DNA of 64,000 nt from Thermodesulfobacteriota bacterium (GCA_965203965.1 CBDBDR010000017.1:278440-342439), one strand, 5' to 3'. Shown: positions 4,919 through 61,017, counted from the first letter of the stretch. The notes: generated from the sequence alone by a model not told the origin. Made by a program: numbers and translations.

Positions 4919-5530
4919 TTAATACTGAGTTTCTTTCAATATTGGCTGTGAATTCAGATAATTTGCCAGCTTTTTAGCGGCTATTGATCTGTGACTTATT
5001 TTATTTTTATCCGCAGGATCAAGTTCTGCCATGGTTTTTTGCATTTCTGGCAGGTAAAAAATTGGATCGTAACCAAAGCCATTATTTCCTCTTTTCTCAT
5101 CTATGATGACCCCTTCACAACTTCCTTCAAACAATTTGGTTGTGCCGCTGGGATTTACAAACGCAATCACGCATACAAATTTAGCTTGCCTGTTTTTTAT
5201 TGCCTTGATATTCTTCAGCAACTTGTTCACATTTTCATCATCTGTGCTGTTATTACCGGCGTATCTTGCTGAATAAATACCCGGTTCTCCGTTCAGAGCT
5301 TTGACGACCAATCCCGAGTCATCGGCGATGGTTATTTTGTTAAAAAAAGCTGAAATTATCTCAGCTTTTTTTAGTGCATTTTCTTCAAACGTACTCCCGT
5401 TTTCAATTATTTTGGGTGCTTGGTCAAAATCCAACAGAGATTTAAAGCTGAAGTAATTGCCAAGTAACTCTGAAAATTCAGCGAGCTTTCCCCTGTTTTT
5501 AGTTGCTATTATTATTTCTTTTGACTCCAT
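4919..5530 (-). CDS. rdgB: Non-canonical purine NTP pyrophosphatase (RdgB/HAM1 ITPase)
   Basis: 203 aa. IIIATKNRGKLAEF… and FGYDPIFY motifs typical of the Ham1 family. Confidence 0.9.
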   Translation of the reverse strand: MESKEIIIATKNRGKLAEFSELLGNYFSFKSLLDFDQAPKIIENGSTFEENALKKAEIISAFFNKITIADDSGLVVKALNGEPGIYSARYAGNNSTDDENVNKLLKNIKAIKNRQAKFVCVIAFVNPSGTTKLFEGSCEGVIIDEKRGNNGFGYDPIFYLPEMQKTMAELDPADKNKISHRSIAAKKLANYLNSQPILKETQY

Positions 5531-5639
5531 GATCCGTGTTTACAACTCACAAGGTATCAAAATTGTTTCAGATAACTGTATGGTTCAATCAATATCTTTA
5601 TCTTTAATTATATTATCTGCATTTTGATGTTTTTTATGT

Positions 5640-8324
5640 ATGCTAATGCCATTCGTAGAAAATAAGGAGGATGGCTTGATGGTAATGCATTGTAAAAAAC
5701 TTTTGTTTATTGTATTTAACTTTTTTGTATTTGTCCCGATAGTTTTTGCTCAGAATACAGATAACTCTGAAAATCAAATATTCAGCTTTGACCCTTTGGT
5801 GATAACGGGAAGTAGAACCATTACTGATGATTCAACTTCTCCCGTACCGGTTGACCGCATAGAAAAGGATGAACTTCTCAAAACTGGACATAATGAACTT
5901 GGCAGGGCAATACAAACGTTGATCCCTTCTTTTAATTTTTCAAGTTCCACAATAAGTGATGGAACAGACTCCGTTCGTCCTGCGACTTTGAGAGGGATGG
6001 GGCCTGACCAAGTGCTTCTGTTGATAAATGGAAAACGTCGACATGGTAGTGCACTTATACACGTAAATACTTCAGTTGGGCGTGGTACAGCGGGCTATGA
6101 CATAAACTCCATACCCATAAGTGCAATTGATCGTGTGGAAGTATTAAGAGATGGAGCTTCTGCTTTGTATGGCTCCGATGCAATAGCTGGTGTCATCAAT
6201 ATAATTTTAAAAACTGACTATGAGGGAGCAGTTTATACTTCTTATGGAGAAACTTATGAGGGAGATGGTGCTCAATTTATAACCAGATTGAACAAAGGGT
6301 TCAGTATTGGTGGGGATGGGGTGCTTCACCTTGCAGCAGAGTTTCGTGATAGGCAGAGAACCAACCGTGCTGGGTTGTCAGGAACAATACAATATCCAGA
6401 CTCTACAAGTTTCCCTCTGGATGATAATGATGACAATAACTTTGACCCAGTTTTGAATACCAATCTCATTAATGAGGGATTTAGACCGGGGACAATCGTT
6501 CTGTTGAATGATCCAGACGGTAAAGAAGCGAGTTTTAACCGCCGTAATTTCCGCATTGGGGATGCTGATGCAGAGTATGTAAGCGGTGTGTATAACTTTG
6601 AAAAACCGATCAGTATTGGCTCAGGTGCAAATATATATTCATTTGGTTCTATTTCACGGAAGGAAAGCACAAGTGGAGGTTTTTACAGAAGAGCAAACGA
6701 TGCCCGGAATCCGGGGGCAAGCTATCCGGATGGATTTCTTCCTCTGATTGAAACTACGGTATGGGATTTTTCACTGAATATGGGTGTAGATTATGAATTT
6801 GATAGTGGTCTCAAAGTTGATCTTGGAGTTACACATGGAGGAAATACCTTTAACTTCGGTGTGAAAAACTCCCATAATGCCTCATGGGTCTATCGTAAAC
6901 TCAATCCCGATACCGATTTCACGTTTGGAACCGCCGCGTTTAGAACTGGTACAGATCCTTTCTCAGAAACGGATTTTTCTGGCTCAATTCCAACCTCCGC
7001 AGACTCGGGGGAACTCGCATTATATCTCACCACAGTAAATCTGGATTTTGTAATGCCTATACAGGATTGGCTTAAACTGGCTTGGGGAGGAGAGTACAAA
7101 AGGGACAACTACAAGATAGAAGCAGGGGATCCTTATTCTTATGAGGATTATGATGGAATTACAGAAAGTGGGGCTCCAGGAGGGATACAGGTTTTTCCAG
7201 GATTTCAACCTGAAAACGAAGTAGATGAATCAAGACATGCTTTTGCTCTTTACACTGAAGCAAGTGTAACTCCTTATGAATCATTACTGATAAGTCCTGC
7301 CGTGCGTTACGAAAGATACAGTGATTTTGGTAACAGTTTGAATGGCAAGATAGCGGCAAAGTTAGACGCTTTTGAAATTATTACTTTCAGAGGTTCACTA
7401 AGCAGTGGGTTCAGGGCACCTTCAATGCAGCAGCTTTACTTCAACAACGTAAGCACTCAATTTCTTCCCGTGGGTAACGATCAGGTTCCTTTTGAGGTTG
7501 GAACTTTCAGAAACGACAGTGAAATAGCCAATGCAATTGGGATCCCTGATCTTGATGAAGAAACTTCTGTAAACTGGAGCGGTGGTTTTTTATTTAAACC
7601 CTTTTCTAATTTCTCCATTACCACGGATTTTTACTACATAACCGTAGATAATAGAATTATCCTAAGCGGTCCATTGGAGCCGGGTAATGAGGCTCTTTCA
7701 CAAACCGCGAGAGAGTTTTTTATTGCTAGAGGCATTGGAAGAGCTCAGTTTTTTATGAACGCGGCTGATACAAGGACAAAAGGTGTGGATATAATTTCCG
7801 CTTGGCAAGTCCCGTTTGTTTCCAAAGGGTCATTGAAACTCAAATTTGCTGGGACAATATCAGACACAAAGATCACTTCAGTGAACCTCCCAGTTGGACT
7901 TCCCGATTCGCTTTACACTGATCGGGATCGTTCCATTTTGGAAGAGTGGCAACCAGATAGTAAATTCACACTTTCAGGTAACTACGATATTAATAGATTT
8001 TCATTTTGGTTAGCATTTCATCGTTATGGTGAATACAGAATAACAAATGGGGGTAGACAACAGACTTACGGTGCTAAATATCTGACCGATGCACAAATGA
8101 GCATTGATCTCGGAAGGTTAGGAGCAATAAAATTCGGAGCTAATAACCTATTTGACGTGACGCCTGATAGGAACGAGATAACTATTTCAAACAGAGGCAC
8201 TATAATAGACCCAGAAGGTAACGTAATTGTGGATTCACCCGGTGTTTTCACTTACTCAAGAGGGTCTGCTCCATTTGGATTTAACGGTGGATTTTATTAT
8301 GTCGCTTTTGAGAGAAGTCTGTAA
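5640..8324 (+). CDS. TonB-dependent outer-membrane receptor. The likely true start is the internal Met near 5679 (MVMHCKK…, signal peptide).
   Basis: Signal peptide, plug-domain motifs (…VITGSRT…, …RGMGPDQVLLLINGKR…) and a long beta-barrel with a C-terminal aromatic-rich end. Confidence 0.85.
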   Translation: MLMPFVENKEDGLMVMHCKKLLFIVFNFFVFVPIVFAQNTDNSENQIFSFDPLVITGSRTITDDSTSPVPVDRIEKDELLKTGHNELGRAIQTLIPSFNFSSSTISDGTDSVRPATLRGMGPDQVLLLINGKRRHGSALIHVNTSVGRGTAGYDINSIPISAIDRVEVLRDGASALYGSDAIAGVINIILKTDYEGAVYTSYGETYEGDGAQFITRLNKGFSIGGDGVLHLAAEFRDRQRTNRAGLSGTIQYPDSTSFPLDDNDDNNFDPVLNTNLINEGFRPGTIVLLNDPDGKEASFNRRNFRIGDADAEYVSGVYNFEKPISIGSGANIYSFGSISRKESTSGGFYRRANDARNPGASYPDGFLPLIETTVWDFSLNMGVDYEFDSGLKVDLGVTHGGNTFNFGVKNSHNASWVYRKLNPDTDFTFGTAAFRTGTDPFSETDFSGSIPTSADSGELALYLTTVNLDFVMPIQDWLKLAWGGEYKRDNYKIEAGDPYSYEDYDGITESGAPGGIQVFPGFQPENEVDESRHAFALYTEASVTPYESLLISPAVRYERYSDFGNSLNGKIAAKLDAFEIITFRGSLSSGFRAPSMQQLYFNNVSTQFLPVGNDQVPFEVGTFRNDSEIANAIGIPDLDEETSVNWSGGFLFKPFSNFSITTDFYYITVDNRIILSGPLEPGNEALSQTAREFFIARGIGRAQFFMNAADTRTKGVDIISAWQVPFVSKGSLKLKFAGTISDTKITSVNLPVGLPDSLYTDRDRSILEEWQPDSKFTLSGNYDINRFSFWLAFHRYGEYRITNGGRQQTYGAKYLTDAQMSIDLGRLGAIKFGANNLFDVTPDRNEITISNRGTIIDPEGNVIVDSPGVFTYSRGSAPFGFNGGFYYVAFERSL

Positions 8325-8567: not shown

Positions 8568-9215
8568 TTATGCTTTTTCAATTTTTTTGTCGGTTCTCAA
8601 GTCAAGGAAATACCAATCATTTATCTTCTCCCATTCAAATTGATAAGAGTTATGTAAAGTCACTCTAATATTTTCTCGCCCTTTGCTGTCATACCAAAAT
8701 TCTTTCCCTTTTTCAGTTATAAATCCATCGTGTGTAGCGAAAACAGTCCCAACACCTTTTTTTGATTGTTTGATATATGGTGTACTATTAGTAATCATAT
8801 AAAATCTTCCAAGTTTAAATTGTCCTTTGGTAATAACCAATTCAAGGGCTTCAATATCAACGTAAGCATCAATTCTTCCATGGTCTTGCGCCCCTTGTTT
8901 TGCTGTCTTAAATTTTAATTCAATAGCGCATTTTATTTGGTCAACGAATTCGCAAGAAATGTCAATGTACTTTGATTTTCCTTTTATGTTGTCACATTTA
9001 GTTTCCAAATCCACTTTGAAAAGGTCTTTTTCAGCGATTGAGTATAGATTTCCAACGTTTCTTATTATTTGGGCGAAATGATGTTGAAAAGGTGCTTCTT
9101 TACTGATTTCGTGTCTGCTGTGAATAAACTGAGATTTAAAGATTTTCCACGACAAGTCTAAAACTTCATTTAGTCGTTTTGGATATTCAAATTCTATAAT
9201 CTCTTCTTCTTTCAT
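8568..9215 (-). CDS. Hypothetical protein with a possible PD-(D/E)xK-like motif (…YIDISCEFVDQIKCAIELKFK…)
   Basis: 215-aa ORF, AT-rich, with no recognisable family. Lies between the receptor terminator and the tmRNA 3' flank. Confidence 0.45.
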   Translation of the reverse strand: MKEEEIIEFEYPKRLNEVLDLSWKIFKSQFIHSRHEISKEAPFQHHFAQIIRNVGNLYSIAEKDLFKVDLETKCDNIKGKSKYIDISCEFVDQIKCAIELKFKTAKQGAQDHGRIDAYVDIEALELVITKGQFKLGRFYMITNSTPYIKQSKKGVGTVFATHDGFITEKGKEFWYDSKGRENIRVTLHNSYQFEWEKINDWYFLDLRTDKKIEKA

Positions 9216-9579
9216 TTTTTACGGCTTGTGCTATCCCCTTCACTAACAGGGACAATATGGGAGGCATCAATTAATTTAAGTTGCGAGTCACATTATAACG
9301 GAATAACTAAAATGGCACAATGGGATAAAAAACTGAAAACTGACTGACCGAGAATTTAAGTAATCTAATCAATTTTTACCTTTTTTCTGCCATAACTTTC
9401 CCTAATTATTATACTTTTTATTTTTGCAGTTTTTGACGCTTATTGCATCTAATTTCTGAACTTGCGGACATTTTAACAAAAAAATCAATGTTAAAATGTT
9501 AAAGGGGAGTTAGGAACTCGTTAAGTATCAACACTATCGCTGTTTTCGGTCATTTTTTGTAAGTGGGAAAATAATCGTT

Positions 9580-9623
9580 TGTTAAACACCGTTTAAATCC
9601 CGTTTAATCCCCATTTAAACTGT
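9580..9623. repeat. Four tandem 11-bp-phased TTTAAA-core repeats (gTTAAAcacc / gTTTAAAtcc / cgTTTAATcc / ccaTTTAAAc)
   Basis: Direct reading of the sequence shows TTAAA cores at 11-bp intervals. A related array lies at 50869-50923. Confidence 0.6.
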
Positions 9624-9708
9624 CAATAATTCCGCCAAAAGACCTCTCTAATCCGCGTTTCTCTGGGGTTTATACTGGAACTTATTTGCTCTTTGCGAGT
9701 GGGGTGGA

Positions 9709-9750
9709 AGGGAAGGGAAAAGGAAAACCCTGCCAATTTTGAGCAGGGTT
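9709..9750 (-). terminator. Rho-independent terminator of ssrA (tmRNA)
   Basis: aaccctgc-N9-gcagggtt hairpin, followed on the minus strand by a T-rich tract (tttccttttcccttccc). Confidence 0.55.
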
Positions 9751-9779
9751 CTAAAGTGGTTGCTACCGAAAGTAGCTTT

Positions 9780-10132
9780 TGGTGGAGGCGCTGGGAATCG
9801 AACCCAGGTCCGCTAAAGAGCCTCACTTAGCTTCTACATGCTTATCCTGCTTATTAAATTTCACAAGGCAAATACCAACAGGCGGGTCTAGCCTTGCAAT
9901 CCCGGTTTTAATCTCGCTGCTTTACCAACCGAGCAAAGTAAATCAGCCAGCCCGTTTTTATTACGCCTCATCAAGAACCACGGGCATGATCCCTGAGAGA
10001 CGTCACAGCATTATTTATGCTGCGAGTGCATTAATTGGTTCGGCACTTATTGTGCGCAATCAGTTTTACGAGTTAATCAGCTCGACATGCAGCTTAAGTT
10101 GTCTCGTTTACCGTCGAAGCCAATACGCCCCC
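9780..10132 (-). ncRNA. ssrA: tmRNA (SsrA), ~353 nt
   Basis: 5' end GGGGGCGUAUUGGCUUCGACGG… and 3' tRNA-like end …GGGUUCGAUUCCCAGCGCCUCCACCA. An internal reading frame ends …NALAA-UAA (candidate tag ~AEPINALAA). It sits immediately downstream of smpB. Confidence 0.9.
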
Positions 10133-12041: not shown

Positions 12042-12239
12042 AGCTAACCTCCTTATTATTTTTGAAATTGATTTATTAAAACTGCATTAAATTAATATTA
12101 AAATACTTTTGACCCGATATTTCAAGTTATTTATTTTTTCACGCGAAATTAATGCAAGTTAATTTGTTCATTGTGTCTCTTTGTGCGTTGGCAAATTTCA
12201 TTGAAACTGAAGGTGATCTTGTATAACATAGTTTCTCAT

Positions 12240-41466: not shown

Positions 41467-41661
41467 ATGAAAGTCAGAGAAATAATAAAATTAATAAAAG
41501 ATGATGGGTGGTATCTAGATAAACACAAAGCAACAAGTCATAGGCAATTCAAACATCCATCTAAGCCAGGTAAAGTAACAGTAGCTGGAAATTTAGGAAA
41601 GGAATTAAAGAAAGGAACAGAACATAGTATAATTAAACAAGCAGGAATACAATTACATTAA
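41467..41661 (+). CDS. hicA: HicA-family toxin (mRNA interferase) of a type II toxin-antitoxin system
   Basis: 64 aa. …LIKDDGWYLDKHKATSHRQFKHPSKPGKVTVAG… (YcfA/HicA signature). Confidence 0.8.
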   Translation: MKVREIIKLIKDDGWYLDKHKATSHRQFKHPSKPGKVTVAGNLGKELKKGTEHSIIKQAGIQLH

Positions 41662-41670
41662 AAACGGAGG

Positions 41671-41892
41671 TTGATAACAATGAAAAACAAATATCTTATT
41701 ATAATTGAAAAAACAGGCAATGGTTATAGTGCTTATGCTCCTGATCTTCCAGGATGTATAGCTGCTGCGGACACCCTTGAAGAAACCAGACAACTTATGT
41801 CTGAAGCCATTGAATTTCATATAGAGGGACTAAAAGAAGATAACTATGCCGTACCTCAACCAATAAGTGTTGCCGGATATGTTACCTGCTAA
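41671..41892 (+). CDS. hicB: HicB-family antitoxin (UPF0150)
   Basis: 73 aa. …YLIIIEKTGNGYSAYAPDLPGCIAAADTLEE…. Confidence 0.7.
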   Translation: MITMKNKYLIIIEKTGNGYSAYAPDLPGCIAAADTLEETRQLMSEAIEFHIEGLKEDNYAVPQPISVAGYVTC

Positions 41893-49712: not shown

Positions 49713-50438
49713 TTAAATATCCCCGAGGCAGAATTGAATTATGGAAACAGAGGCTATTGATGCCGTTTCAGTCCTTAATGTTCTTGGACCCAGACTGACT
49801 ATTTTTATCCCCTGATCTTCTGACGCTTTTATCTCATCTTTTGAAAAACCACCTTCCGGTCCAATTATTAAACTTACAGTTGTGATCTTTTTATCAAAAG
49901 ATCCCAGAACTTTTTTCAGTTCAATATCACCGTTTTGTTTATCAAAAAGCAGGTTTAAGGCTTTTCTCGGCAGGTTATTGATAGTATCATCGTAACTTTT
50001 TGGTTCATTGATCTTGACTGGCAAACCTCTTCCTGACTGCTTGCATGATTCCATTGCGATCTTTATCCATCTTTTCATTTTATCCGTATGGCGGACAACC
50101 GTTCTTTCCGTGTATATCGGGGTAATGGATTTTACTCCAAGTTCACAACATTTCTGAACTATAATATCCATTTTGTTTCCTTTGATAATGGATTGAAACA
50201 AGTTGATATCCAAGTTGGATTCATTCTCTAATTTGAAAGAGTTATAAATTTCAACAGTTAATTTTTTACTTAAAATAATTTTGATAATTGCCTGATATAT
50301 AATGGAATTTTCATCAAATAATTCTATTTTCTGTCCTTCTTTAAACCTCAATACTTTTACAATGTGTCTATGGTTCTCTCCTGAGAGATCTACCAGTTTT
50401 CCCTTCACTTGTTTGCTTGATACTAAAAATTTAGGCAT
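49713..50438 (-). CDS. rsmE: 16S rRNA (uracil1498-N3)-methyltransferase RsmE
   Basis: 241 aa. N-terminal PUA-like region (MPKFLVSS…ENHRHIVKVLRFKEGQ) and a SPOUT C-terminus (…LIIGPEGGFS…). Confidence 0.85.
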   Translation of the reverse strand: MPKFLVSSKQVKGKLVDLSGENHRHIVKVLRFKEGQKIELFDENSIIYQAIIKIILSKKLTVEIYNSFKLENESNLDINLFQSIIKGNKMDIIVQKCCELGVKSITPIYTERTVVRHTDKMKRWIKIAMESCKQSGRGLPVKINEPKSYDDTINNLPRKALNLLFDKQNGDIELKKVLGSFDKKITTVSLIIGPEGGFSKDEIKASEDQGIKIVSLGPRTLRTETASIASVSIIQFCLGDI

Positions 50439-50581
50439 CTGGAATTTAGAGCATTTTAACTTTTGATACTGTAGTTAAAGCTGTTTGTTAGTATTACTTT
50501 AACTATTTTTCTTATTGTTTTAACTCATCAGAAAAAATTCGTGAGGAAAATTCCCCTCCTATGGAGGGGTGGCAGGCAGAG

Positions 50582-50615
50582 CCTGACGGGGTGGTATAAG
50601 AAAACAACACAAGCA
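50582..50615 (+). repeat. 35-nt element copy 1 (cctgacggggtggtataagaaaacaacacaagca), preceded by the ccccTCC-tat-GGAgggg hairpin
   Basis: Near-identical copy at 50815-50849 in the same orientation. Confidence 0.55.
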
Positions 50616-50814
50616 CTATGTTGAGTTTTTTGGAGGTAGTGGGCAGTGTTGCTCAACAAATTTTTGAACATTTTCAATAGATGCCGGTGTATTTCTGTTC
50701 TCTTTGTCTTCTTAAATTTGTTTGCCATTTTGTATTGTGGAGTGTCTAAGGATATTTAAGAATGTTTAAAGTAGTATTAAAAATGTCTAGTTTCTAAAAA
50801 CTACCCTGTCATTT

Positions 50815-50849
50815 CCTGACGGGGTGGTAAGAGAGAAACAACACAAGCA
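50815..50849 (+). repeat. 35-nt element copy 2 (cctgacggggtggtaagagagaaacaacacaagca)
   Basis: See copy 1. Both lie in a 590-bp gene-free region. Confidence 0.55.
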
Positions 50850-50868
50850 GAATATCTACAAATTGACA

Positions 50869-50923
50869 CTTTAAATGGGGTTTAAACGGCATTTAAACAG
50901 CATTTAAATATAGTTTAACTCAA
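50869..50923. repeat. Five tandem 11-bp-phased TTTAAA-core repeats (cTTTAAAtggg / gTTTAAAcggc / aTTTAAAcagc / aTTTAAAtata / gTTTAActcaa)
   Basis: Read directly from the sequence. Related to the array at 9580-9623. Confidence 0.6.
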
Positions 50924-51026
50924 TAGTTGATTTTTAAGTTTTTGATCTAAAATTTATAATAATATCAGTAAATAAAGAACATAAGTTATAGTTATTTATT
51001 CATTTTTACTTTCAAGCCATTGAGGT

Positions 51027-52574
51027 TTAAGAGGCATAATATTTCAGCATTTCGGATACAAGTCCTTCAATAGTGTGCTTTGATGCTGTGATCTCGGGTT
51101 TAAATCCATTGGAGATCAGCGTGTCGGAAGTTATTGGGCCTATGGAAGCACAGTTTGTGTTGTGCAGATATTTAGAGTTTTTGTCTAGGATCTTTAGCAT
51201 GTTGATCACAGTTGATGAACTTGTGAAAGCAATAAGGTCAATTCCACCTGATCTCAATTTGTCTATGAACTCTTTTTTTAATGAAGGTTTTATTTTTGGT
51301 ATTACAGTTTCATAGCAACTTGCGATAGTAACTTTACCTTTCATCTCTTTCAAAGTTTTGGGCAATGTGTCTCTTGCAACTTTTGCTCTTGGTATTAAAA
51401 ATCGCCGTCCCTTTATTTCACTTGGTTTAAGGCTCTCAATTATGCCTTCTGCAGTGTAGTTGTGGGGGATAATATCGGCTGATAATCCGTAGCTTTTTAG
51501 TTCAGAACCAGTTTTTTCTCCAATTACCACTATTTTCTTTTCGGAAAATATCCTTGAATCCAGACCTTTACTGAATATCCTTGAAAAAAAGTATTTAACA
51601 CCGTTGACGCTGGTAAATATCACGTAGTCAAACTTGCTTATAGATTTTATGGTCTTGTCAACTTGTTCCCATGAACTTGTCGGAATTGTCTCTATCGTTG
51701 GAAACTCAATTACATTGGCACCATAGGAACTTAGCAGGTCATAGAATGCCGAAGACTGATCTTCAGCTCTTGTAATAACTATGTTCTTTCCAAAGAGAGG
51801 CTTCTTTTCATACCAACTCACTTGCTTTTTCAGATTTACTATTTTTCCCACTAATATAATTGCTGGAGATTTTATAGCAGGGTCCGAGCGTATAAGTCCC
51901 GCTATACTGTCAATCGTGCCTTTAACTGATCTTTGCGTTGGTATTGTCCCCTGTGAGATCACCATCGCAGGTGTGTTTTTGGGTATTTTTTCCTCTATTA
52001 GCTTTTTCATAATGAGGTGGATGTTTTTCAGGGACATTAAAAAGATCAGGGTTTCTTGTTCTGATATTGCTTTCCAGTTCAGCTTGGGATCTGATTTAAA
52101 TGGATTTTCATGCCCTGTGATCACAGTAAAAGAGGAGTTGTATTCTCTATGAGTAAGTGGCACACCTGAATAAGCTGGAACAGAACTGACGGAACTGACG
52201 CCGGGAACTATCTCTATCACTATATTGGCTTTAACCAGTGCTTCTGCTTCTTCTCCCCCGCGACCGAATATGAAGGGGTCTCCTCCCTTTAACCTCACTA
52301 CGGTTTTCTTTCTTCTGGCATGGTATATGAGTTTTTTATTTATCTCATTCTGAGTGCTTTCTTTCTGACCGGGGGTTTTTCCCACGTAGATCAGTTTTGC
52401 CGACTTTTTACAGAAATTTAACAGTCTTTTGTTTATAAGCGCATCGTATATGACAACGTCAGCGTATCGTAGTATTTTCTTGCCCTTTAAGGTCAGCAGT
52501 TCAGGATCACCGGGTCCGGCGCCCACGAGATAAACGACTGGCTCCATTATGTTTGAAAAAGAAACCGCAGGCAC
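51027..52574 (-). CDS. Uroporphyrinogen-III C-methyltransferase / uroporphyrinogen-III synthase fusion (CobA-HemD)
   Basis: N-terminal SUMT motifs (VGAGPGDPELLTLKG, VVRLKGGDPFIFGRGGEE) and a C-terminal HEM4-like half. 515 aa. Confidence 0.85.
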   Translation of the reverse strand: MPAVSFSNIMEPVVYLVGAGPGDPELLTLKGKKILRYADVVIYDALINKRLLNFCKKSAKLIYVGKTPGQKESTQNEINKKLIYHARRKKTVVRLKGGDPFIFGRGGEEAEALVKANIVIEIVPGVSSVSSVPAYSGVPLTHREYNSSFTVITGHENPFKSDPKLNWKAISEQETLIFLMSLKNIHLIMKKLIEEKIPKNTPAMVISQGTIPTQRSVKGTIDSIAGLIRSDPAIKSPAIILVGKIVNLKKQVSWYEKKPLFGKNIVITRAEDQSSAFYDLLSSYGANVIEFPTIETIPTSSWEQVDKTIKSISKFDYVIFTSVNGVKYFFSRIFSKGLDSRIFSEKKIVVIGEKTGSELKSYGLSADIIPHNYTAEGIIESLKPSEIKGRRFLIPRAKVARDTLPKTLKEMKGKVTIASCYETVIPKIKPSLKKEFIDKLRSGGIDLIAFTSSSTVINMLKILDKNSKYLHNTNCASIGPITSDTLISNGFKPEITASKHTIEGLVSEMLKYYAS

Positions 52575-52722
52575 GCCCCGTTGTCAAGTATGGTAAATTG
52601 CCGAGATGATCTATGACGTTTCAGGTTCTAACAAAATATGGGTTCAGAAAAAATAATACAGTAATAAAGTTTCTACAAATTTTCTCTTGACACACGGTTA
52701 TTTGTGCTTAAATTCTGGAATA

Positions 52723-53310
52723 ATGCAAAAGAAACTCGGTGATATTGCTACTGTTCAAATGGGATTTCCCTTTCGTTCACGTATTGAACCAGACGAGGAT
52801 GGAAATGTCTCTATTATTCAAATGAGCAATTTAGGAGAAAATAGTTTGAAGGCTCATACGGATCTGCTCAAGGTTTACCTAAAGAATATATCTCATAAGC
52901 ACTTAGTGAAACAAAAAGATTTGATCTTTCGTTCAAGGGGAAAAACAATAAATGCAGTGATAATTGATAAAGAAATTGAGCGAGCAGTCGTAGCGGCACC
53001 GTTAATTAGAATAAGAGTTACGGAAAAGGACGTTATTCCGGAATATCTTCTCTGGTTCATGAATCAGCCATTATCTCAAGCATTTTTGCACGGCAGAGCC
53101 ACCGGAACTTCAATGCCTATGATCGGTAAGTCAACTCTTGAAGATCTGCGGATTACTATCCCTGATCTTGAAACTCAAAGGCAAATCGTAATACTTGCTC
53201 ATTTATCGGACAAAGAGCAAAAACTAATGAAACGGTTGGCTAAGGCAAATGGTAGTTTAGTTCAAAAAACTTTGAAACAGTTGGTAACAGATCCTAAGAA
53301 GTCTTATTAG
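52723..53310 (+). CDS. hsdS: Type I RM specificity subunit, half-size (single target-recognition domain plus conserved region)
   Basis: ~195 aa with one target-recognition domain and the conserved helical region …LETQRQIVILAHLSDKEQKLMKRL… It is immediately upstream of hsdM. Confidence 0.7.
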   Translation: MQKKLGDIATVQMGFPFRSRIEPDEDGNVSIIQMSNLGENSLKAHTDLLKVYLKNISHKHLVKQKDLIFRSRGKTINAVIIDKEIERAVVAAPLIRIRVTEKDVIPEYLLWFMNQPLSQAFLHGRATGTSMPMIGKSTLEDLRITIPDLETQRQIVILAHLSDKEQKLMKRLAKANGSLVQKTLKQLVTDPKKSY

Positions 53311-53322
53311 AGGAGCAGAGAA

Positions 53323-54837
53323 ATGACAAATGGGACAATAGATCAAAAAAACATAGACAATGCTGCATGGTCTGCCTGCAACACTTTTCGTGGAGTGATG
53401 GACGCGTCCGTTTACAAGGACTACATACTCGTGATGTTGTTTCTCAAATATGTTTCGGATGTTTGGAAGAGCCATTATGAGAAATACAAAAAGCAATACG
53501 GAGACCACAAAGAGCGCATCAACCGCCTTCTTAAAAATGAGCGGTTTGTTTTGCCTAAAGACAGCAGTTTTTACAACCTGTATGAGAATCGTTCTGCTTC
53601 AAATATCGGTGAACTTATAAACATTGCGTTGACCGCATTTGAAGACGAAAACAAAGAGAAACTGGAGGGTGTTTTCCGCAACATTGACTTCAATAGCGAA
53701 ACAAATTTCGGCAAAACAAAAGACCGCAATCGCCGTCTTAAAACACTACTTGAAGATTTGAACAAACCAGAGTTGGATATGAGTCCAGATAATGTTACAG
53801 AAGACATTATCGGCAATACATACATCTATCTGATAGAGCGTTTTGCGTCCGATGCTGGCAAAAAAGCGGGAGAGTTCTACACACCTCACAAGGTTTCGGA
53901 GTTGGTAGCAAAGTTATGCGACCCCAAGCCCGGAGCACGCATTTGCGACCCTACTTGTGGTTCTGGAGGGCTTCTAATTGAAGCCGCGCGCGAAGTGGGT
54001 GGCGATGATTACTCTCTTTGTGGGATGGAAGTCAACGGAGGTACTTGGGCGCTTTGTCGGATGAATATGTTCCTTCACGGGATGGATTCAGCACGAATTG
54101 AATGGTGCAATACATTAACAGCCCCCGGACTCGTGGAAACCGACCGCCTGATGAGGTTTGACAATATTGTCGCAAATCCACCTTTCTCGTTGGATAAGTG
54201 GGGAGCGGAAGAAGCGGGAAACGACATTTACAAGCGTTTTTGGCGAGGAATTCCTCCCAAGTCTAAGGGGGATTACGCTTTCATCAGTCACATGGTGGAG
54301 GCAGCTCTGGAAAAGAAAGGGCGCATTGCGGTTGTTGTCCCACATGGTGTTTTATTCAGGGGCGCGGCAGAGGGGCGTATCCGTCGCCATTTAATAGAAG
54401 AAAATCTGCTGGATGCCGTCATCGGCTTACCGGGTAATCTTTTTCCAACCACGTCCATTCCGGTTGCTATCTTGGTGTTTGACCGTTCACGCGAGACAGG
54501 TGGTGCAAATGAGAAACTCAAGGATGTGTTGTTCATTGATGCAAGCCGTGAGTATGAGTCCGGAAAAAATCAGAACAAGCTACTGGACAAGCATATAGAA
54601 AAGATCGTTGACACATATAAAAAGCGTAAAAGTGTTGACAAATATGCGCATTTGGCAAAACCAGAAGAGATTGAAGAAAACGATTTCAACCTGAACATCC
54701 CGCGTTATGTGGACACCTTTGAGGAAGAAGAGGAGATAGATATAGACGCGGTGCAGCGAGAAATAGATCAACTGGAAAAAGAACTGTCCAAAGTGCGGAT
54801 GGAGATGGCGAAAAAAATGAAGGAGATTAAAAGATGA
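53323..54837 (+). CDS. hsdM: Type I RM N6-adenine DNA methyltransferase subunit
   Basis: N-terminal HsdM domain, motif I (DPTCGSGGLL), motif IV (NPPF). Confidence 0.9.
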   Translation: MTNGTIDQKNIDNAAWSACNTFRGVMDASVYKDYILVMLFLKYVSDVWKSHYEKYKKQYGDHKERINRLLKNERFVLPKDSSFYNLYENRSASNIGELINIALTAFEDENKEKLEGVFRNIDFNSETNFGKTKDRNRRLKTLLEDLNKPELDMSPDNVTEDIIGNTYIYLIERFASDAGKKAGEFYTPHKVSELVAKLCDPKPGARICDPTCGSGGLLIEAAREVGGDDYSLCGMEVNGGTWALCRMNMFLHGMDSARIEWCNTLTAPGLVETDRLMRFDNIVANPPFSLDKWGAEEAGNDIYKRFWRGIPPKSKGDYAFISHMVEAALEKKGRIAVVVPHGVLFRGAAEGRIRRHLIEENLLDAVIGLPGNLFPTTSIPVAILVFDRSRETGGANEKLKDVLFIDASREYESGKNQNKLLDKHIEKIVDTYKKRKSVDKYAHLAKPEEIEENDFNLNIPRYVDTFEEEEEIDIDAVQREIDQLEKELSKVRMEMAKKMKEIKR

Positions 54838-55055
54838 GCAAGATGCCAACAAATAAACATCATCAAACATTTGAGGATGCTTGTCGCCGTACGGAAAACG
54901 GCGCCGAATTTTGGTCTGCACGCGAACTTTTGTCCATTCTCGATTATGGAAGTTGGGATAAATTCAAGGCAGTCATTCATAAGTCTATAAGTGCTTGTGA
55001 GAATTCGGGCATGGTTTCCTCAGACCATTTTTCCCAGATGGGAAAAATGGTCTGA
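54834..55055 (+). pseudogene. DinD-like (DNA-damage-inducible protein D family) N-terminal fragment, 73 aa
   Basis: …HHQTFEDACRRTENGAEFWSARELLSILDYGSWDKFKAVIHKSISACENSG… resembles DinD N-termini. ATGA overlap with the hsdM stop; truncated. Confidence 0.4.
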
Positions 55056-55175
55056 AGGGTTCGGGTCGGAGGTAATGGCTAAACAGGAGAGAAAGGAACA
55101 GGCATTGTTGAAAAGGATAAAAAGGGCATAAAATAGGTATTTTTTGCCTATATCTACAACGACATATACACAAAA

Positions 55176-55745
55176 TTGAATTTTATGTACACATTAAGCA
55201 AACATATACATAATTTTGAGAGCATTCACCCGTTCCCTGACGGCAATGGTCGCATTGGTCGCGTGCTGAACGTGCTGTATCTGACGCACAAGGGGCTTTT
55301 AGACGCTCCCATCCTTTATTTGAGCCGAGCGATCAACCGCACAAAGCCAGACTACTACCGCTTATTGCAAGCCGTGCGTGAAGAGGGCGCATGGGAAGAA
55401 TGGATCATCTACATACTGAGTGCCGTTACAGAAACGGCAAAATCAACCTTGCAACTTGTATCGGGTATTCGGGAACTGATGGCTGAACACAAAAAACTTA
55501 TACGAGATGAACTGCCGAAAATCTACTCTCAGGACTTGTTGAATAATCTGTTTCGCAACCCCTATACGCGTATTGACTACGTGGCGAAAGACCTAACGGT
55601 TGACCGCAGAACAGCACGCAAGTATCTCAAACAATTAACTGAAAAGGGGATTGTGGAGGAAGTAAAGGCGGGGAGGAACAACTACTACATAAACAAAAAA
55701 CTGGTTGACCTGTTTGTCAGTGTCTCGGTGGAAGGGGATCAGTGA
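55176..55745 (+). pseudogene. Fic-family protein lacking the N-terminal half (begins just before the HPFPDGNGRIGR motif)
   Basis: Canonical Fic motif HPFPDGNGRIGR at residues 18-29, followed by a C-terminal wHTH-like region. A functional Fic fold needs ~100 aa upstream of the motif. Confidence 0.55.
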
Positions 55746-57895
55746 TGAGTAGGAAAGGGGAAAAGGAACGAGCGTTGCCCGATGGGTGGCAGGAAGTGAG
55801 GCTGGGGGACATAATGGAATTCAAAAATGGATTGAATACAGAGAAAGGAAACTATGGTAAGGGTGTAAAATTTGTGAACGTAATGGATGTTTTCAAGTTT
55901 AACTATCTTTATGAACATAATGTTGTTGGCTCTGTTCAAGTTAGTGAAAAAAACAGAATTGAATATTCAGTTAAATATGGGGATATCTTGTTTAATAGGA
56001 CATCTGAAATACTTAATGAGATTGCTATGTCATCTGTATATCTCGATGAGAAAAAAATAATCTTTGGAGGTTTTGTTATTAGAGGACGCCAAAAAATTAC
56101 TGCTCTTACTCCTCGATTTTCTATTTGTTGTCTTCAATCCAATAAAGTACGAAAAGAATTAATAAGACGAGGGCAAGGTGCCGTCCGAGCGAACATTGGA
56201 CAAAAAGATCTAGCGAAAATTCCTGTTGTTATTCCACCGCTCCCCGAACAAAAAGCCATCACCTCTTTACTGGAAACATGGGACACGGCGATTGAGAAAA
56301 CTGAAGCATTGATTGAGGCAAAGGAAAAGCGGTTCAAGTGGTTGCTGAAAACACTCATCAGCAATCAGCAAGACAATCCTGAATGGCGGGAAGTGAGGTT
56401 GGGGGATGTTACGAAGGTTATTGTAGGCCAGTCTCCAAAAGGGATTTTCTATAATACAGAGGGTGAGGGCATGCCCTTCTATCAAGGTAAATCTGAATTT
56501 GGGAAAATCTACATTAACAATCCTAATATGTGGACTACTCAAACAACTAAAACGGCAGAGAAAGGCGATATTCTTATGTCCATTAGAGCTCCTGTTGGGT
56601 CAATTAACCGTACAAATAACAAAATTTGCATTGGCCGAGGGCTTGCTAGTATTAGGGTTCATAGCATCAAACGAACGTTCTTATTTTTTTACTTGCAGTT
56701 TATCAAAAGCCAAATAATAGGAAATGGTGGCTCTATATTCAATTCGATTACTAAGCGTCAAGTTGAACAAATTCCAATTCTTTGCCCCCCAGTTTCTGAA
56801 CAAAAAGCCATTGCTGCTGTACTAAACACGGTACAACGTGAAATTGATCTACTGGAACAACTCACCCAACAATACCGCACACAAAAGCGCGTGCTGATGC
56901 AGAGATTATTGACAGGAGAATGGAGGACAAAGATGAATCGTTATATTCTGAGAATGGGCACTTACGAGTGTCCTAAAACAGTAATTAAAAAAGAAAGATT
57001 TGAACAATTAAAGGAAGCGAGAAATATCTTGTCAAAAGCATTGGTTTTTGAGGGGAATTACGAGATTATAGTGCATAATTACCTTGAGTTGGAAAAAGAA
57101 TTGATGGGAATTACTATTGAAGATATTGGTAGAACTTATTATAGTTATGATGATTTCTTCAATTATACACTTTCTTCTAATATCAGAGTATCAAACCTTC
57201 TGAATTCGGCAAAATTTTACATTGATACACTTTCGCAAACTCTCGAGAACTGCTTTCAAAATGAGGAAGTTTCTCCTGATATAAAACAAATAATCAAAGA
57301 GGATGAGGGCAACTCGCTTCTTGAATTTGTTTATGAACTAAGGAACTATCTTCAGCATGTTGATTTGCCAGTGCATAACACCTTAATAAATAGAAGATGG
57401 ACAGATGACAATCTTATGGAATATTCCACGCATATCTTTTCTTCAAAGAAATATCTTTCAGAGGATGAAAAGTCAGAATCAATACTTAAAAAAATGGAAG
57501 AACAAAAAATAATGAAAGAAGAAGAAATAAACCTAAACCTTACCATTAGACACTATGTAGAATTCATCAGTAAAATGCATATTCAAACGAGATCTAAGAT
57601 AGAAAAAAGAGTTAATGAGGCAAGAGATTGCATAGAATCTACGATTAAGGAATATTTAGACGAACATAGGATTAAGGAAAAGGAATATTTAGATGAAGAT
57701 GGGAAGTTTATAGGTTTTTTACATGCTTTCCATTTCAACCATAGTGAAATAGAAGAGAAAATTCCTTTGTTTCTGGATTACGACGATGTTCGTCTTAATC
57801 TAATACGTAAGAACAACAAAGAACTGGTTAATCTACATAAACGATATGTTACAACACGAGTTGATTCAGTAAATAAGAAGGAAATATCTAAATAA
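55742..57895 (+). CDS. hsdS: Type I RM specificity subunit HsdS (two target-recognition domains, aa ~1-395) fused in-frame to a ~320-aa Lys/Glu-rich C-terminal domain with an Rx4H (HEPN-like) motif; a candidate Abi_2-like abortive-infection domain
   Basis: Conserved HsdS central and C-terminal regions (…YRTQKRVLMQRLLTGEWRTK). There is no stop where the downstream repeat copies of this region carry their TGA, and the frame continues into MNRYIL… The motif ELRNYLQH sits at 57341-57358. Confidence 0.7.
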   Translation: MMSRKGEKERALPDGWQEVRLGDIMEFKNGLNTEKGNYGKGVKFVNVMDVFKFNYLYEHNVVGSVQVSEKNRIEYSVKYGDILFNRTSEILNEIAMSSVYLDEKKIIFGGFVIRGRQKITALTPRFSICCLQSNKVRKELIRRGQGAVRANIGQKDLAKIPVVIPPLPEQKAITSLLETWDTAIEKTEALIEAKEKRFKWLLKTLISNQQDNPEWREVRLGDVTKVIVGQSPKGIFYNTEGEGMPFYQGKSEFGKIYINNPNMWTTQTTKTAEKGDILMSIRAPVGSINRTNNKICIGRGLASIRVHSIKRTFLFFYLQFIKSQIIGNGGSIFNSITKRQVEQIPILCPPVSEQKAIAAVLNTVQREIDLLEQLTQQYRTQKRVLMQRLLTGEWRTKMNRYILRMGTYECPKTVIKKERFEQLKEARNILSKALVFEGNYEIIVHNYLELEKELMGITIEDIGRTYYSYDDFFNYTLSSNIRVSNLLNSAKFYIDTLSQTLENCFQNEEVSPDIKQIIKEDEGNSLLEFVYELRNYLQHVDLPVHNTLINRRWTDDNLMEYSTHIFSSKKYLSEDEKSESILKKMEEQKIMKEEEINLNLTIRHYVEFISKMHIQTRSKIEKRVNEARDCIESTIKEYLDEHRIKEKEYLDEDGKFIGFLHAFHFNHSEIEEKIPLFLDYDDVRLNLIRKNNKELVNLHKRYVTTRVDSVNKKEISK

Positions 57896-58030
57896 TAAAT
57901 GACTTCATCTCAATTATTATAAGATTGAACAAAATTGTTTGATCTTATAAATTCTTGAGGTCTATGAAAAGCCTTGGAATTAACAAGACCACAGGCTACC
58001 GAATTGGCTCAACGGCTCAAAAAGAAATAA

Positions 58031-58355
58031 ACTTGCTCAAACAATTATCTGAACAATACCGCACTCAAAAACGCGGGCTGATGCAGAAGTTGCTGACTGG
58101 AGAATGGAGGGTAAAGATATGATTACAAAAATCACGATGAACAATGTTACCAGTTTTAAAGAGAAAACCAGATTCATCTTTAACCGCTTGGGTTATGAAT
58201 TTTCTAATGCGGTTCAAACGCCCATTAAAGGCAGAGTTAGCCCTTCTACGTAAGGTCAAAGTTCTGGTTGGATCAGTGCGTCTTCTTTCTGCCATTATGG
58301 GTTTTACCTTTGAGCTTCATCCAAGCCACAAAACGTGGTAATGTAGTATAATTTT
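58031..58355 (+). repeat. Direct repeat R1 core (325 bp): an hsdS 3'-end copy (…QYRTQKRGLMQKLLTGEWRVKI*) plus a 45-codon 5' stub of an AAA_15/RloA-like ATPase gene (MITKITMNNVTSFKEKTRFIF…)
   Basis: ~93% identical to 59816-60140. A further homologous stretch (58440-58700 vs 60230-60480) extends each copy to ~650 bp. Confidence 0.8.
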
Positions 58356-58794
58356 CATTTACTAATAGTATAGTTTTTTCTGTATAATAATTTTCAGCAA
58401 TTCAGTATAGAAATAACGTTTTCTACATGATGAAACAAAGTTTGATCATTTGGAATTATACTGTTCCATGATCAGGTCTATAAAGAGTTTTACAATGGGT
58501 GAAGCCATTCCTCAGACTCAGTCGGCGGAGTTGTATTGGCGGTTACGAGAGCCAAGCGGGCAAAACCACGCTGGCGTATCGTACGAAAATGTTCAATACA
58601 TTGAACAAAATTGTTTGATCTGATAAATTCTTGAGGTCTATGAAAAGCCTTGGAATTAACAAGACCACAGGCTACTGAACTGGCTCAACAGCTCAAAAAG
58701 AAATAGACTTGCTCAAACAATTAGCAGAACGATACCGCACTCAAAAGCGCGGGCTGATGCAGAAGTTGCTGACTGGGGAGTGGAGAGTGAAGAG

Positions 58795-59742
58795 ATGAGC
58801 ACATCTTTTAAAATATTAAGCATAGATGGTGGAGGAGTGCGAGGAATTCTTCCCGCCAAGATACTGAAGCTCATGGAAGCCGAGCTCGGCATAGACGTAC
58901 ATGAAACCTTTGATCTCATTGTTGGCACTAGCACTGGTAGTATCATAGCTGGGGCAATCGCCGTAAAGTACAAATTGGCTAAATTAGTAAGTGATTACAA
59001 TGAAAATGCTCCGAAAGTTTTCAAGAAAAGATGGAATTTCATGGGGCTTTACAGATCTAAATACAGTTCAGCCTTCCTTGAAAGTTTTCTTCGTAAAATA
59101 TTTGGTGAGGTTACATTGGGAGAAATAGAAAAACCGCTCATTCTTAATGCTACAAATATCAGCGATGGTAATCTTCATGTTTTCAAGTCATCGTATCAAA
59201 AAAAACAACGAGAGGGGGAAGAGGAGCAGGTTTATAACAGGGATGGAGGAGTACCTTTGTACAAAGCAACTCTAGCCTCTTGTTCGGCACCAATTTATTT
59301 TGATCCGGTGAAGATAATATTTGATCCGGTGGATAAAGAAGAAAAACTTATTTGTGACGGGGGTATTTGGGCTAATAATCCTTCCTTGGTTGGATACAGT
59401 GACGCTATCAGGAATTTCAAGAATGTTGGAACCGATAATGTCAAGATCTTGTCTTTGGGAACTGGACAAACCAAGCAAATTTACCAACCAGCAAAAGCAT
59501 GGGGATACTTAACGGGATGGAAACATACGAAATTGATAGACTTCTCCATATCATGTCAGACAGAGTTTCCTAAAAATGTTTTGGAACTTATTGATTTAGA
59601 TAAAATTCTCAGGATCAACCCTTCTATTGATAATTACGAGATTGACAATTACCAAAGCATCCCAAAGTTAATGGAACTGGCTAAAAAGGAATTCAATAGT
59701 AGCAGTGAAAAAATTTCAAATTTTCTTAACATAAGAAGATAG
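58795..59742 (+). CDS. Patatin-like phospholipase (PNPLA family)
   Basis: Oxyanion hole SIDGGGVRGI, nucleophile elbow GTSTG (GxSxG), catalytic Asp motif CDGGIWANNP. ~316 aa. The start codon (GTG) overlaps the last hsdS 3'-end copy (copy B). Confidence 0.8.
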   Translation: MSTSFKILSIDGGGVRGILPAKILKLMEAELGIDVHETFDLIVGTSTGSIIAGAIAVKYKLAKLVSDYNENAPKVFKKRWNFMGLYRSKYSSAFLESFLRKIFGEVTLGEIEKPLILNATNISDGNLHVFKSSYQKKQREGEEEQVYNRDGGVPLYKATLASCSAPIYFDPVKIIFDPVDKEEKLICDGGIWANNPSLVGYSDAIRNFKNVGTDNVKILSLGTGQTKQIYQPAKAWGYLTGWKHTKLIDFSISCQTEFPKNVLELIDLDKILRINPSIDNYEIDNYQSIPKLMELAKKEFNSSSEKISNFLNIRR

Positions 59743-59815
59743 GAGACAAAAATTACAGTTTACGAGGAAAAATTTGTTCTCTTTTCTGATAGGTATTCCT
59801 GTCAAAAAGAAATGG

Positions 59816-60140
59816 ACTTGCTCAAACAATTAGCAGAACGATACCGCACTCAAAAACGCGGTTTGATGCAGAGGTTGTTGACTGGAGAATGGAGGGTGAA
59901 GATATGATCACAAAGATCACGATGAACAACATCACCAGTTTTAAAGAGAAAAGCAGATTCATCTTTAACCGCTTGGGTTATGAATTTTCTAATGAGGTTC
60001 AAACGCCCATTAAAGGCAGAGTTAGCCCTTCTACGTAAGGTTAAAGTTCTGGTTAGATCAGTGCGTCTTCTTTCTGCCATTATGCGTCTTACCTTTGAGC
60101 TTCATCCAAGCCACAAAACGTGGTAATGTAGTATAATTTT
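59816..60140 (+). repeat. Direct repeat R2 core (325 bp), copy of R1: hsdS 3' end (…LLTGEWRVKI*) plus the ATPase 5' stub
   Basis: See R1. Together R1 and R2 bracket the patatin gene. Confidence 0.8.
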
Positions 60141-60408
60141 TTCCACCCAATATGGAGAAAAAACTGTATAGAAATTTTTACTGATTGTTGTATAAAAATA
60201 GAATTATAAGGCTGAATTTTCGGCATTATATTGCTCCATGATCAGGTCTATAAAGAGTTTTACAATGAGTGAAGCCATTCCTCAGACTCAGTCGGCGGAG
60301 TTGTATTGGCGGTTACGAAAGCCAAGCAGGCAAGACCACGCTGGCGTACCGTACGAAAATGTTCAGTACATTGAACAAAATTGTTTCATCTGATAAACTT
60401 TCACATCT

Positions 60409-60687
60409 ATGAAAAGCCTGGAATTAACAAGACCACAGGCTACCGAACTGGCTCAACGGCTCAAAAAGCCTTGCCGGTTTATTCAGTCCATATCGGGGGC
60501 GAAGCAGAAAAGAAAAGTCGCTTTGCTGATATTGGGTGAGGTGCAGAAGTTTCCACACTGGTCAGCGATTGTAAAATATCTTTGGGATGAAGATAGTCGC
60601 ATGAAAAGAATGGTGGCGGCAAAGTGCCTGTTTCGTTTCCCAGATTGGACGTTTTTTGCAAAATATTCAAAACTGCTCAGCAGTTGA
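60409..60687 (+). pseudogene. Degenerate copy of the DUF4143 AAA ATPase gene (61018-62223) with two large internal deletions; the Walker A region is lost
   Basis: N-terminus MKSLELTRPQATELAQRLKKPCRFIQSISGAKQ matches the intact gene, then jumps to …KRKVALLILGEVQKFPHW…SRMKRMV…FPDWTFFAKYSKLL. Confidence 0.6.
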
Positions 60688-60726
60688 TCGTTTCCTGTCA
60701 ACGCCTGCGGAACATTGGTTAAATTG

Positions 60727-60897
60727 ATGCCTGATTTTCTATTTGACGAAAAAAGCCTCTCCCAGATCCCAGCTTTACAGCAGTTGATCAATCCAGTGCA
60801 ACAATTGGTTTTTGGGATGAATGGAAGAAAGAAAAGGATGGACAAAGGAATAAAAGAATCTATTGAAACATTAAGAAAACAGAGTAAATCTCAATGA
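60727..60897 (+). pseudogene. Duplicated 5' fragment of hsdR (first ~21 codons, MPDFLFDEKSLSQIPALQQLI) followed by unrelated sequence
   Basis: Near-identical to the hsdR start at 62223 (MPDFLSDEKCLSQIPALQQLI). The preceding ~60 nt also match the 3' end of the intact ATPase gene. Confidence 0.5.
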
Positions 60898-60946
60898 AAA
60901 TAACACTAAAACAGGGGAAGCAAGCACTGCTTTTAAATAACAAAAA

Positions 60947-60986
60947 TGTTCAATACATTGAACATTTTTGTTCAATGTATTGAACA
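60947..60986. promoter_or_regulatory. Two tandem operator-like palindromes (TGTTCAAT-ac-ATTGAACA and TGTTCAAT-gt-ATTGAACA, centres 22 bp apart) 32 bp upstream of the ATPase gene
   Basis: Perfect 8-bp inverted arms. Single copies or remnants precede each ATPase 5' fragment (58595-58612, 60362-60379, partial at 57927-57945). Confidence 0.4.
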
Positions 60987-61017
60987 AAATTGTTCAGTCT
61001 GATAATCTTTTTAGGCG

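Follow-up and report, generated by a model that had tools for sequence, protein, structure and literature searches.

Two short blocks of TTTAAA hexamers, phased at one helical turn, occupy distant non-coding sites in the window (the whole 64,000-nucleotide stretch of Thermodesulfobacteriota DNA analysed here), which raises the question of where such arrays come from and whether a protein reads them. The repeats and their phasing had been pointed out in a preliminary description of this DNA, and both were recovered in our analysis, with an exact 11-bp register running over four units at one site and five at the other. The core-to-core distance is 11 bp at every step of both arrays, and each array is preceded by a short non-repeat head, so that head and units form a module:

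9581–9627, minus strand: site 1 module; head ATTGACA followed by G (9627–9620), then four 11-bp units
50862–50923, plus strand: site 2 module; head ATTGACA followed by C (50862–50869), then five 11-bp units

Read on the minus strand from 9627 down to 9581, site 1 is ATTGACAG TTTAAATGGGG ATTAAACGGG ATTTAAACGGT GTTTAAC; read on the plus strand from 50862 to 50923, site 2 is ATTGACAC (50862–50869) TTTAAATGGGG TTTAAACGGC ATTTAAACAGC ATTTAAATATA GTTTAAC. In plus-strand coordinates the cores of site 1 are GTTAAA (9581–9586), TTTAAA (9592–9597), TTTAAT (9603–9608) and TTTAAA (9614–9619), followed by the head at 9621–9627, and those of site 2 are TTTAAA at 50870, 50881, 50892 and 50903 and TTTAAC at 50914. 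The unit can be written as TTTAAA-YGGSR on one strand and as TTAAA(C/T)NC(C/T) on the other. Since the core is palindromic and 11 equals 2 modulo 3, TAA is present in all three frames of both strands in each array, as can be read off the sequence.

The arrays are not a chance pattern

There are just 40 TTTAAA hexamers in the 64 kb and, with one mismatch allowed per core and spacings of 8–15 bp, sites 1 and 2 are the sole chains of four or more units in the window. No chain of at least four units arose in 300 second-order Markov simulations of the window, and chains of at least three units appeared at a rate of 0.12 per window. The simulations and the motif statistics together rule out a chance origin, and with it the concern, raised in the preliminary description, that similar arrays might be common by chance in an AT-rich genome. 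A weak third array (three ATTAAA cores at 11-bp spacing, 12074–12106) lies 33–65 bp upstream of the start of a porin gene; a 99%-identical strain (L144) has an interrupted chain at this place, which makes a chance occurrence probable.

Tandem Repeats Finder also reports both sites as period-11 arrays, the other period-11 row being a two-copy repeat only. As these calls describe ordinary period-11 repeats (78–85% matches), they would suit a neutral minisatellite: an 11-bp unit expanded by slippage in AT-rich acquired DNA and then duplicated, with slippage and conversion among the units keeping the cores alike, and with neither a binder nor a function. Slippage, however, needs no period of exactly one helical turn, and heterogeneous spacers around a preserved 6-bp core are unlike young slippage products. 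On the evidence here and below, we consider a neutral minisatellite a somewhat unlikely origin.

The two sites are evidently copies of one module

Aligned in inverted orientation, sites 1 and 2 are identical at 40 of 46 positions without a gap (BLAST E = 1e-10), and the pair is the longest inverted repeat in the window. A 28-nt consensus of the head and two units matches just these two sites in the window, the expected number of matches being 0. The identity extends over the head ATTGACA, which is not part of the repeat, and over spacers one and two (TGGGG in both; CGGGA versus CGGCA), an extent that convergence on a repeat consensus cannot explain, and as judged by this alignment the two sites are homologous copies of one module. 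The likeness ends at the module edges, beyond which the flanking sequences are unrelated. That the blocks resemble each other was already part of the preliminary description; the alignment bears this out and carries the resemblance into the head. The inserted or strain-variable location of the copies and the difference in unit number between 98%-identical strains, both documented below, are likewise additions to that description.

Just two of the eight aligned cores differ between the sites, by one base each (2 of 48 positions), as compared to 4 of 15 spacer bases. A near-invariant core accompanied by varying spacers is the usual signature of a contacted core, and the copying of a non-repeat head together with the array speaks against the minisatellite origin. 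Relative to their upstream genes the two arrays are oppositely oriented, and their distances to neighbouring features differ.

Site 2 lies in an insertion that varies between strains

As the preliminary description correctly had it, site 1 lies in the 3′ flank of the tmRNA gene near an orphan ORF, and site 2 in the gap on the rsmE side. The features around site 2 are:

49713–50438, minus strand: rsmE
50439–51026: 588-bp non-coding stretch carrying site 2, between rsmE and cobA/hemD
50543–50616, minus strand: small-RNA-like unit a; repeat copy a at 50582–50616, then hairpins, with a terminator-like stem at 50553–50569
50795–50850, minus strand: small-RNA-like unit b, 12 bp from the site 2 head; repeat copy b at 50815–50850, hairpin at 50804–50824 and a U run
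51027–52574, minus strand: cobA/hemD

By the labels of its nearest homologues, the organism is an uncultured Thermodesulfobacteriota- or Dadabacteria-like bacterium. In two relatives with 63–66% RsmE identity, the gap between cobA/hemD and rsmE measures 16–17 bp (L267 2293–2308; L268 5984–6000). Strain L266, with 98% RsmE identity, has the additional DNA, at ~500 bp (5495–5997) versus 588 bp in the window. Judging from these comparisons, the 588-bp stretch is an insertion that splits an ancestral cobA/hemD-rsmE junction.

The flanks of the L266 array are ~99% identical to those in the window, and its array region is 20 bp shorter: one whole unit is lost, a further 9 bp are lost (removing the head), and three spacer substitutions have accumulated, with all four remaining TTTAAA cores intact. 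Since the head is missing in L266, ATTGACA is either dispensable or the L266 copy is decaying. Conservation of the cores between strains can also stem from slippage or conversion among units, without selection. The difference in unit number between 98%-identical strains is consistent with a minisatellite, as is the location of both copies in DNA that is absent from relatives or variable in the population.

The two small-RNA-like units share a 34-nt direct repeat (CTGACGGGGTGGTA..AAACAACACAAGCA), with a hairpin and a U run after each copy, and their fold z-scores are -2.8 and -3.1. L266, the 98% strain, has a rearranged direct repeat of ~75 bp; the 34-nt repeat is absent from viral contigs, and the non-coding stretches of sites 1 and 2 both lack a match in the phage and plasmid collections.

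To the right of cobA/hemD lies a variable defence-type island (52687–62300) with hsdS-like genes, hsdM (type I restriction-modification), Fic, patatin and AAA ATPases. It contains many repeated hsdS-like segments and inverted repeats (e.g. TGTTCAATACATTGAACAAAATTGTT), which are suggestive of a specificity-subunit shuffling locus, and its arrangement differs in the 98% strain L266. Elsewhere in the window, two adjacent small ORFs of 64 and 73 aa (41467–41892) resemble, by eye, a HicA toxin and a HicB antitoxin.

Site 1 lies in a heterogeneous tmRNA flank

The features around site 1 are:

8568–9215, minus strand: orphan ORF of 215 aa, on the same strand as the site 1 module and downstream of it, its start 365 bp beyond the array
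9333–9668: 336-bp stretch around site 1, bracketed by contig ends (9332, 9669)
9780–10132, minus strand: tmRNA gene, its 3′ end 152 bp from the site 1 head; terminator hairpin at 9724–9752

The 3′ flank of the tmRNA gene is a classical integration hot spot, and a relative with the same tmRNA tag peptide carries wholly different DNA beyond the tmRNA gene. Independent metagenome assemblies of the same species end exactly at 9332 and 9669, on either side of site 1. The left break (9332/9333) falls at an A6 run and a two-copy 7-bp repeat, AAAACTG, on the strength of which we downgraded the breaks as boundaries of a mobile segment. They prove population heterogeneity only, which strain alleles, indels or an alternative segment could cause.

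Searches of Pfam, PHROG and PDB returned nothing for the orphan ORF, yet genes in unrelated genomes share 84–85% nucleotide identity with it, over the coding region alone, and its closest named homologue comes from an uncultured Tenacibaculum (87% identity, 98% coverage). The contigs fetched with its homologues span 30–52% GC and at least five different neighbourhoods, and many of them break beside the gene; given these many neighbourhoods and breaks, the ORF appears to behave as a promiscuous, horizontally transferred single-gene unit. One homologue, at 62%, bears the name ‘Restriction endonuclease’, and a D...E-x-K-like motif can be read by eye. An association between array and orphan ORF was rejected, as in the fetched contigs the homologues occur in at least five contexts without arrays.

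RNA, promoter, integration, replication and curvature

Searched against Rfam, the arrays returned nothing at the gathering threshold nor at E values up to 10, and the fold of the array RNA is not significant (z = -0.35 and -1.0 for site 1, about -2.2 for site 2). A known RNA is thereby ruled out, and the same two results favour a role at the DNA level.

A promoter scan found no sigma-70-like promoter beside site 2 and none sensibly placed at site 1. The head contains TTGACA, and we rejected it as a -35 box: there is no -10 element at 16–18 bp, the scan is negative, and TTGACA is not enriched near similar arrays elsewhere, where it lies within ~40 bp of just 3 of 93 arrays. A weak -10-like TATTCT without a -35 lies 10 nt past the last unit of site 2, at a spacing that is 9 bp shorter in L266.

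An integrated element at the tmRNA gene was also rejected, as the window contains no duplicate of the tmRNA 3′ end and its surveys returned no integrase. The ORF lists and the 25 most frequent of 72 Pfam families in the window include no candidate binder, integrase, transposase or response regulator, and no excision-factor gene was recognised among 48 small ORFs (inspected by eye, with Pfam and PHROG searches on a few). Neither array has an IHF consensus nearby, and site 2 is at no RNA gene, unlike the att-site setting of an array for a recombination directionality factor (RDF). No terminal inverted repeats or target-site duplications flank the modules or the 588-bp insertion; with neither such repeats, nor a transposase, nor a match in the phage and plasmid collections, the modules do not have the makings of a transposon or MITE end.

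The inverted arrangement of the copies does not reflect the symmetry of a replication origin or terminus, which we rejected on finding no origin- or terminus-like switch in GC skew between them. Replication iterons are 17–22 bp repeats that stand beside a rep gene, with an AT-rich unwinding element and DnaA boxes. The suggestion in the preliminary description that the arrays might be iterons found no support: their units measure 11 bp, and neither the ORF lists nor the 25 most frequent of 72 Pfam families in the window include a rep gene.

The same description held that phased A/T blocks of this kind bend DNA, a claim that survives only in part. T3A3 blocks are a classical low-curvature arrangement, distinct from the phased A-tracts of intrinsically curved DNA, and in a wedge model the control (TTTAAA-N5)5 is curved by 15 degrees as compared to 35 degrees for (AAATTT-N5)5. 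The real arrays fall at the 92nd and 98th percentiles of the window, high without being extreme, and for these reasons the bending argument holds weakly and any intrinsic bend is modest. The likely property of the arrays is flexibility at the TpA steps.

Comparison with known binding arrays

A short conserved core with variable spacers, repeated four or five times in an exact one-turn register, is how sites are built for proteins of which one monomer or dimer binds at each turn of the helix and which polymerise on one face of the DNA. Several well-described systems use short direct repeats at this spacing. Phage P2 Cox binds at least six copies of TTAAA(G/C)NC(A/C), 10–11 bases apart, forming filaments and bending the DNA. 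The operators of phage 186 Apl, five of them at attP and seven at the switch, are 6-bp direct repeats spaced by 10–11 bp, of which three adjacent ones are needed for binding. ParR of plasmid R1 binds two sets of five 11-bp repeats in parC, one ParR dimer per repeat; the sets, 39 bp apart, lie on either side of the par promoter, with parM and parR following directly. ArcA binds two to five direct repeats at 11 bp centre to centre.

Our arrays resemble those of the Cox/Apl/Xis class (including the X1-X1.5-X2 sites of lambda Xis) in having direct repeats with an AT-rich core of ~6 bp and one-turn spacing: RDF arrays comprise at least three direct repeats at 10–11 bp, and here there are four and five at exactly 11 bp. 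In the Cox and Apl systems one element carries arrays of 5–7 operators in two places, attP and the switch, on which the protein forms cooperative filaments that bend the DNA. Two of the nine window units match the P2 Cox-box consensus in full, and most match TTAAA and the C at position 8; the window cores are far more regular than the degenerate boxes of the Cox footprint at P2 attP. Unlike Cox and Apl arrays, those of the window are 41 kb apart with housekeeping genes between them, and the window surveys turned up neither an integrase or excision-factor gene nor a duplicated att core or a nearby IHF site. On account of the similar core, the two arrays at separate loci and the position of one of them beside the tmRNA gene, the Cox/Apl class is the nearest mechanistic model, and by analogy our arrays most likely work like such arrays; as no att core, integrase or factor gene was found in the window, we do not file them as members.

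The likeness to parC lies in the sets of 11-bp direct repeats. Unlike the parC sets, those in the window are 41 kb apart on a chromosome, and no parM or parR was seen in the ORF lists or among the 25 most frequent of 72 Pfam families, which sets the arrays apart from type II centromeres of the ParR/parC type.

The half-sites of the OmpR/PhoB family are commonly TTAA-containing hexamers with 5-bp spacers, such as (T/G)GTTTA-N5 for PhoP and YTTAAK-N5 for PmrA, with TTAA-N7-TTAA for CtrA. The window arrays share with the multi-repeat sites of ArcA and the Pho boxes an 11-bp centre-to-centre distance between direct repeats in which the hexamer is conserved and the spacer varies, and this family binds two to five such repeats. 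The modules might then be response-regulator sites that switch adjacent small transcripts on or off, the targets being the small-RNA-like units 12 bp from the head at site 2 and the orphan ORF or an antisense transcript at site 1. The geometry at site 2, where the last unit ends 10 nt before the TATTCT without a -35, is that of a PhoB-dependent promoter, and the downstream units fold as hairpin-plus-U-run RNAs. However, the promoter scan is empty at site 2, the distance to the -10-like element is not kept in L266, and at site 1 this orientation leads into the tmRNA gene from its 3′ end. Unlike OmpR/PhoB sites, moreover, the arrays have no defined promoter register, they lie in inserted DNA and not upstream of conserved regulon genes, and no regulator gene is found among the 25 most frequent of 72 Pfam families in the window; the weak third array, the one upstream of the porin gene, is lost in the 99% strain. 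We regard a response-regulator site as improbable.

Similar arrays in phages and metagenomes

A collection of species representatives, which evidently does not include the genome of the window, yielded one unrelated match only. A scan of viral contigs for four TTTAAA cores at 11 bp and a metagenome scan with the consensus of the window units each returned at least 120 matches. Setting aside simple tandem repeats and two ORF-poor, eukaryote-like repeat families left 96 non-redundant arrays among the matches listed. The set-aside families are multi-copy and array-bearing: family A (L146, L148, L169 and others) and family B (L147, L156, L174, L177 and others), the latter with six 11-bp units that begin ~20 bp inside the point at which the flanks of its copies diverge, as subterminal repeats of DNA transposons do.

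Among the matches listed, the pattern YRSYR follows TTTAAA in 29% of 293 spacers as compared to ~6% expected, in a set that was partly selected with a Y-GG pattern. Its recurrence in unrelated phage and bacterial contigs is, with that selection in mind, a point against the minisatellite origin. Among the matches listed, 4–6-unit arrays with spacers of the YRSYR type are common both in Mu-like phage contigs and in chromosomal contigs of a Bacteroidota-like kind (examples are viral L007, L013, L039, L067, L068 and L090, and metagenome L150, L176, L188 and L223). Unit number varies among related metagenome contigs, with five units in L150 and six in L186, which fits the minisatellite reading.

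Mu-like phages carry several arrays per genome, with neighbours that include MuA, a putative MuB-like protein, Mu F, gp36, capsid and tail genes. We rejected the idea of a common neighbouring protein family: just the Mu-like phage genes recur, and no single DNA-binding family does. In none of 60 metagenome loci does a gene for tRNA or tmRNA lie closer than 300 bp to the array, and similar arrays, as a class, are for this reason not att-site elements.

The phage and bacterial arrays typically fill short intercistronic gaps. Among the matches listed, 23 of 64 begin exactly where the preceding gene stops, their first TTTAAA providing its TAA, and such arrays commonly run up to the following ATG, in phage as in bacterial contigs. 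Together with the TAA in three frames of both strands, this could point to a role at the level of RNA or translation, in which the array would serve as an AU-rich intercistronic spacer, a six-frame stop cassette or part of a small RNA. Neither array of the window abuts a coding region, however (the distances are 100–430 bp), their orientation to the upstream genes differs between the sites, and the fold and Rfam results above are negative; such a role is highly improbable for the window modules.

One Mu-like family has a five-unit TTTAAA array between its last gene (a Mu F-like minor head or DNA pilot gene) and a set of AATGAGC-like repeats (L007 8843–9110, L032, L037, L043, L108, L114, L115, L022, L048). 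The right end of the family can be placed at ...GAAATGAACRACCCCTTACA, because the sequence diverges directly after this end in different contigs, and the AATGAGC-like repeats lie in the last 250 bp. No match to the family with the right-end array was found among GenBank phages.

An array ~250 bp inside a right end that terminates ...CCCCTTACA invites the thought that the window modules are relics of a similar arrangement: the end or subterminal binding cluster of a transposable or integrative element, with the inverted copies as solo ends, the head (which contains TGACA) at or near the terminus, and the repeats as transposase or integrase-arm sites. Two homologous inverted copies in inserted or variable DNA, one of them beside the tmRNA gene, would agree with this. 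On the other side, the true end-binding repeats of the Mu-like family are a different motif, the AATGAGC-like one; 41 kb of housekeeping genes separate the copies in the window; and the head is turned outward at site 1, to the edge of the variable stretch, but inward at site 2, to the interior of the insertion. Terminal inverted repeats and target duplications are lacking around both the modules and the 588-bp insertion, no second copy of the att core was found in the window, and its ORF lists and 25 most frequent of 72 Pfam families include no transposase or integrase. A relic end thus seems quite improbable.

The outside arrays share with the window modules the core, the 11-bp period, the 4–6 units, the YRSYR-type spacer and the variable copy number; unlike the window modules, they fill intercistronic gaps, often supply the stop codon and have no head motif. 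They match in grammar and differ in context, and are a lead, not an explanation. We see a slim chance that the window modules belong to an undescribed, widespread class of (TTTAAA-YRSYR)n arrays, either read by a common factor or spreading as tiny mobile modules; this same class may then span Mu-like phage genomes, with several arrays per genome that typically start at a stop codon, and Bacteroidota-like chromosomes.

A tentative model

We tentatively favour, at somewhat less than an even chance, the reading that the modules are operator-type arrays for a DNA-binding protein that is encoded elsewhere in the genome or has been lost. The preliminary description had proposed a multi-site binding platform, and this remains the best-supported reading by architecture and analogy; no binder, promoter or partner gene was found. 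In outline, the module would be a cis element of ~50–60 bp consisting of the head ATTGACA and four or five 11-bp direct repeats with the G-rich spacer YGGSR. A small winged-helix or ribbon-helix-helix protein would contact the TTTAAA core once per helical turn, and binding may be cooperative, head to tail and along one face of the DNA, which it would bend or wrap with the help of the flexible TpA steps. By analogy, the best candidates for such a binder are Cox/Apl/Xis-like excision factors, OmpR/PhoB-type regulators and ParR-like proteins. The module would have come in together with laterally acquired non-coding DNA or moved about inside it, one copy reaching the tmRNA 3′ flank and the other the insertion that splits the cobA/hemD-rsmE junction.

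Since neither an integrase nor an excision factor turned up in the window, nor an att duplication, a promoter or a gene for a regulator, the operator-type arrays have a serious rival in a relic or a neutral minisatellite; that no partner gene or promoter was found counts in favour of the minisatellite.

Implications

The modules possibly have no present function; if they are relics, they are ordinary genomic debris at an integration hot spot. They document fast array turnover, one unit having been gained or lost between 98% strains, and show that copying between loci can take in a short non-coding module together with inserted DNA. Most deserving of separate study is the wider presence of this repeat grammar in Mu-like phages. 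If the arrays are bound, a 55-bp bait would be a simple handle for finding the protein, and if it is true that a protein reads them, they would be the mark of a trans-acting regulator or architectural factor in this uncultured Thermodesulfobacteriota- or Dadabacteria-like lineage.
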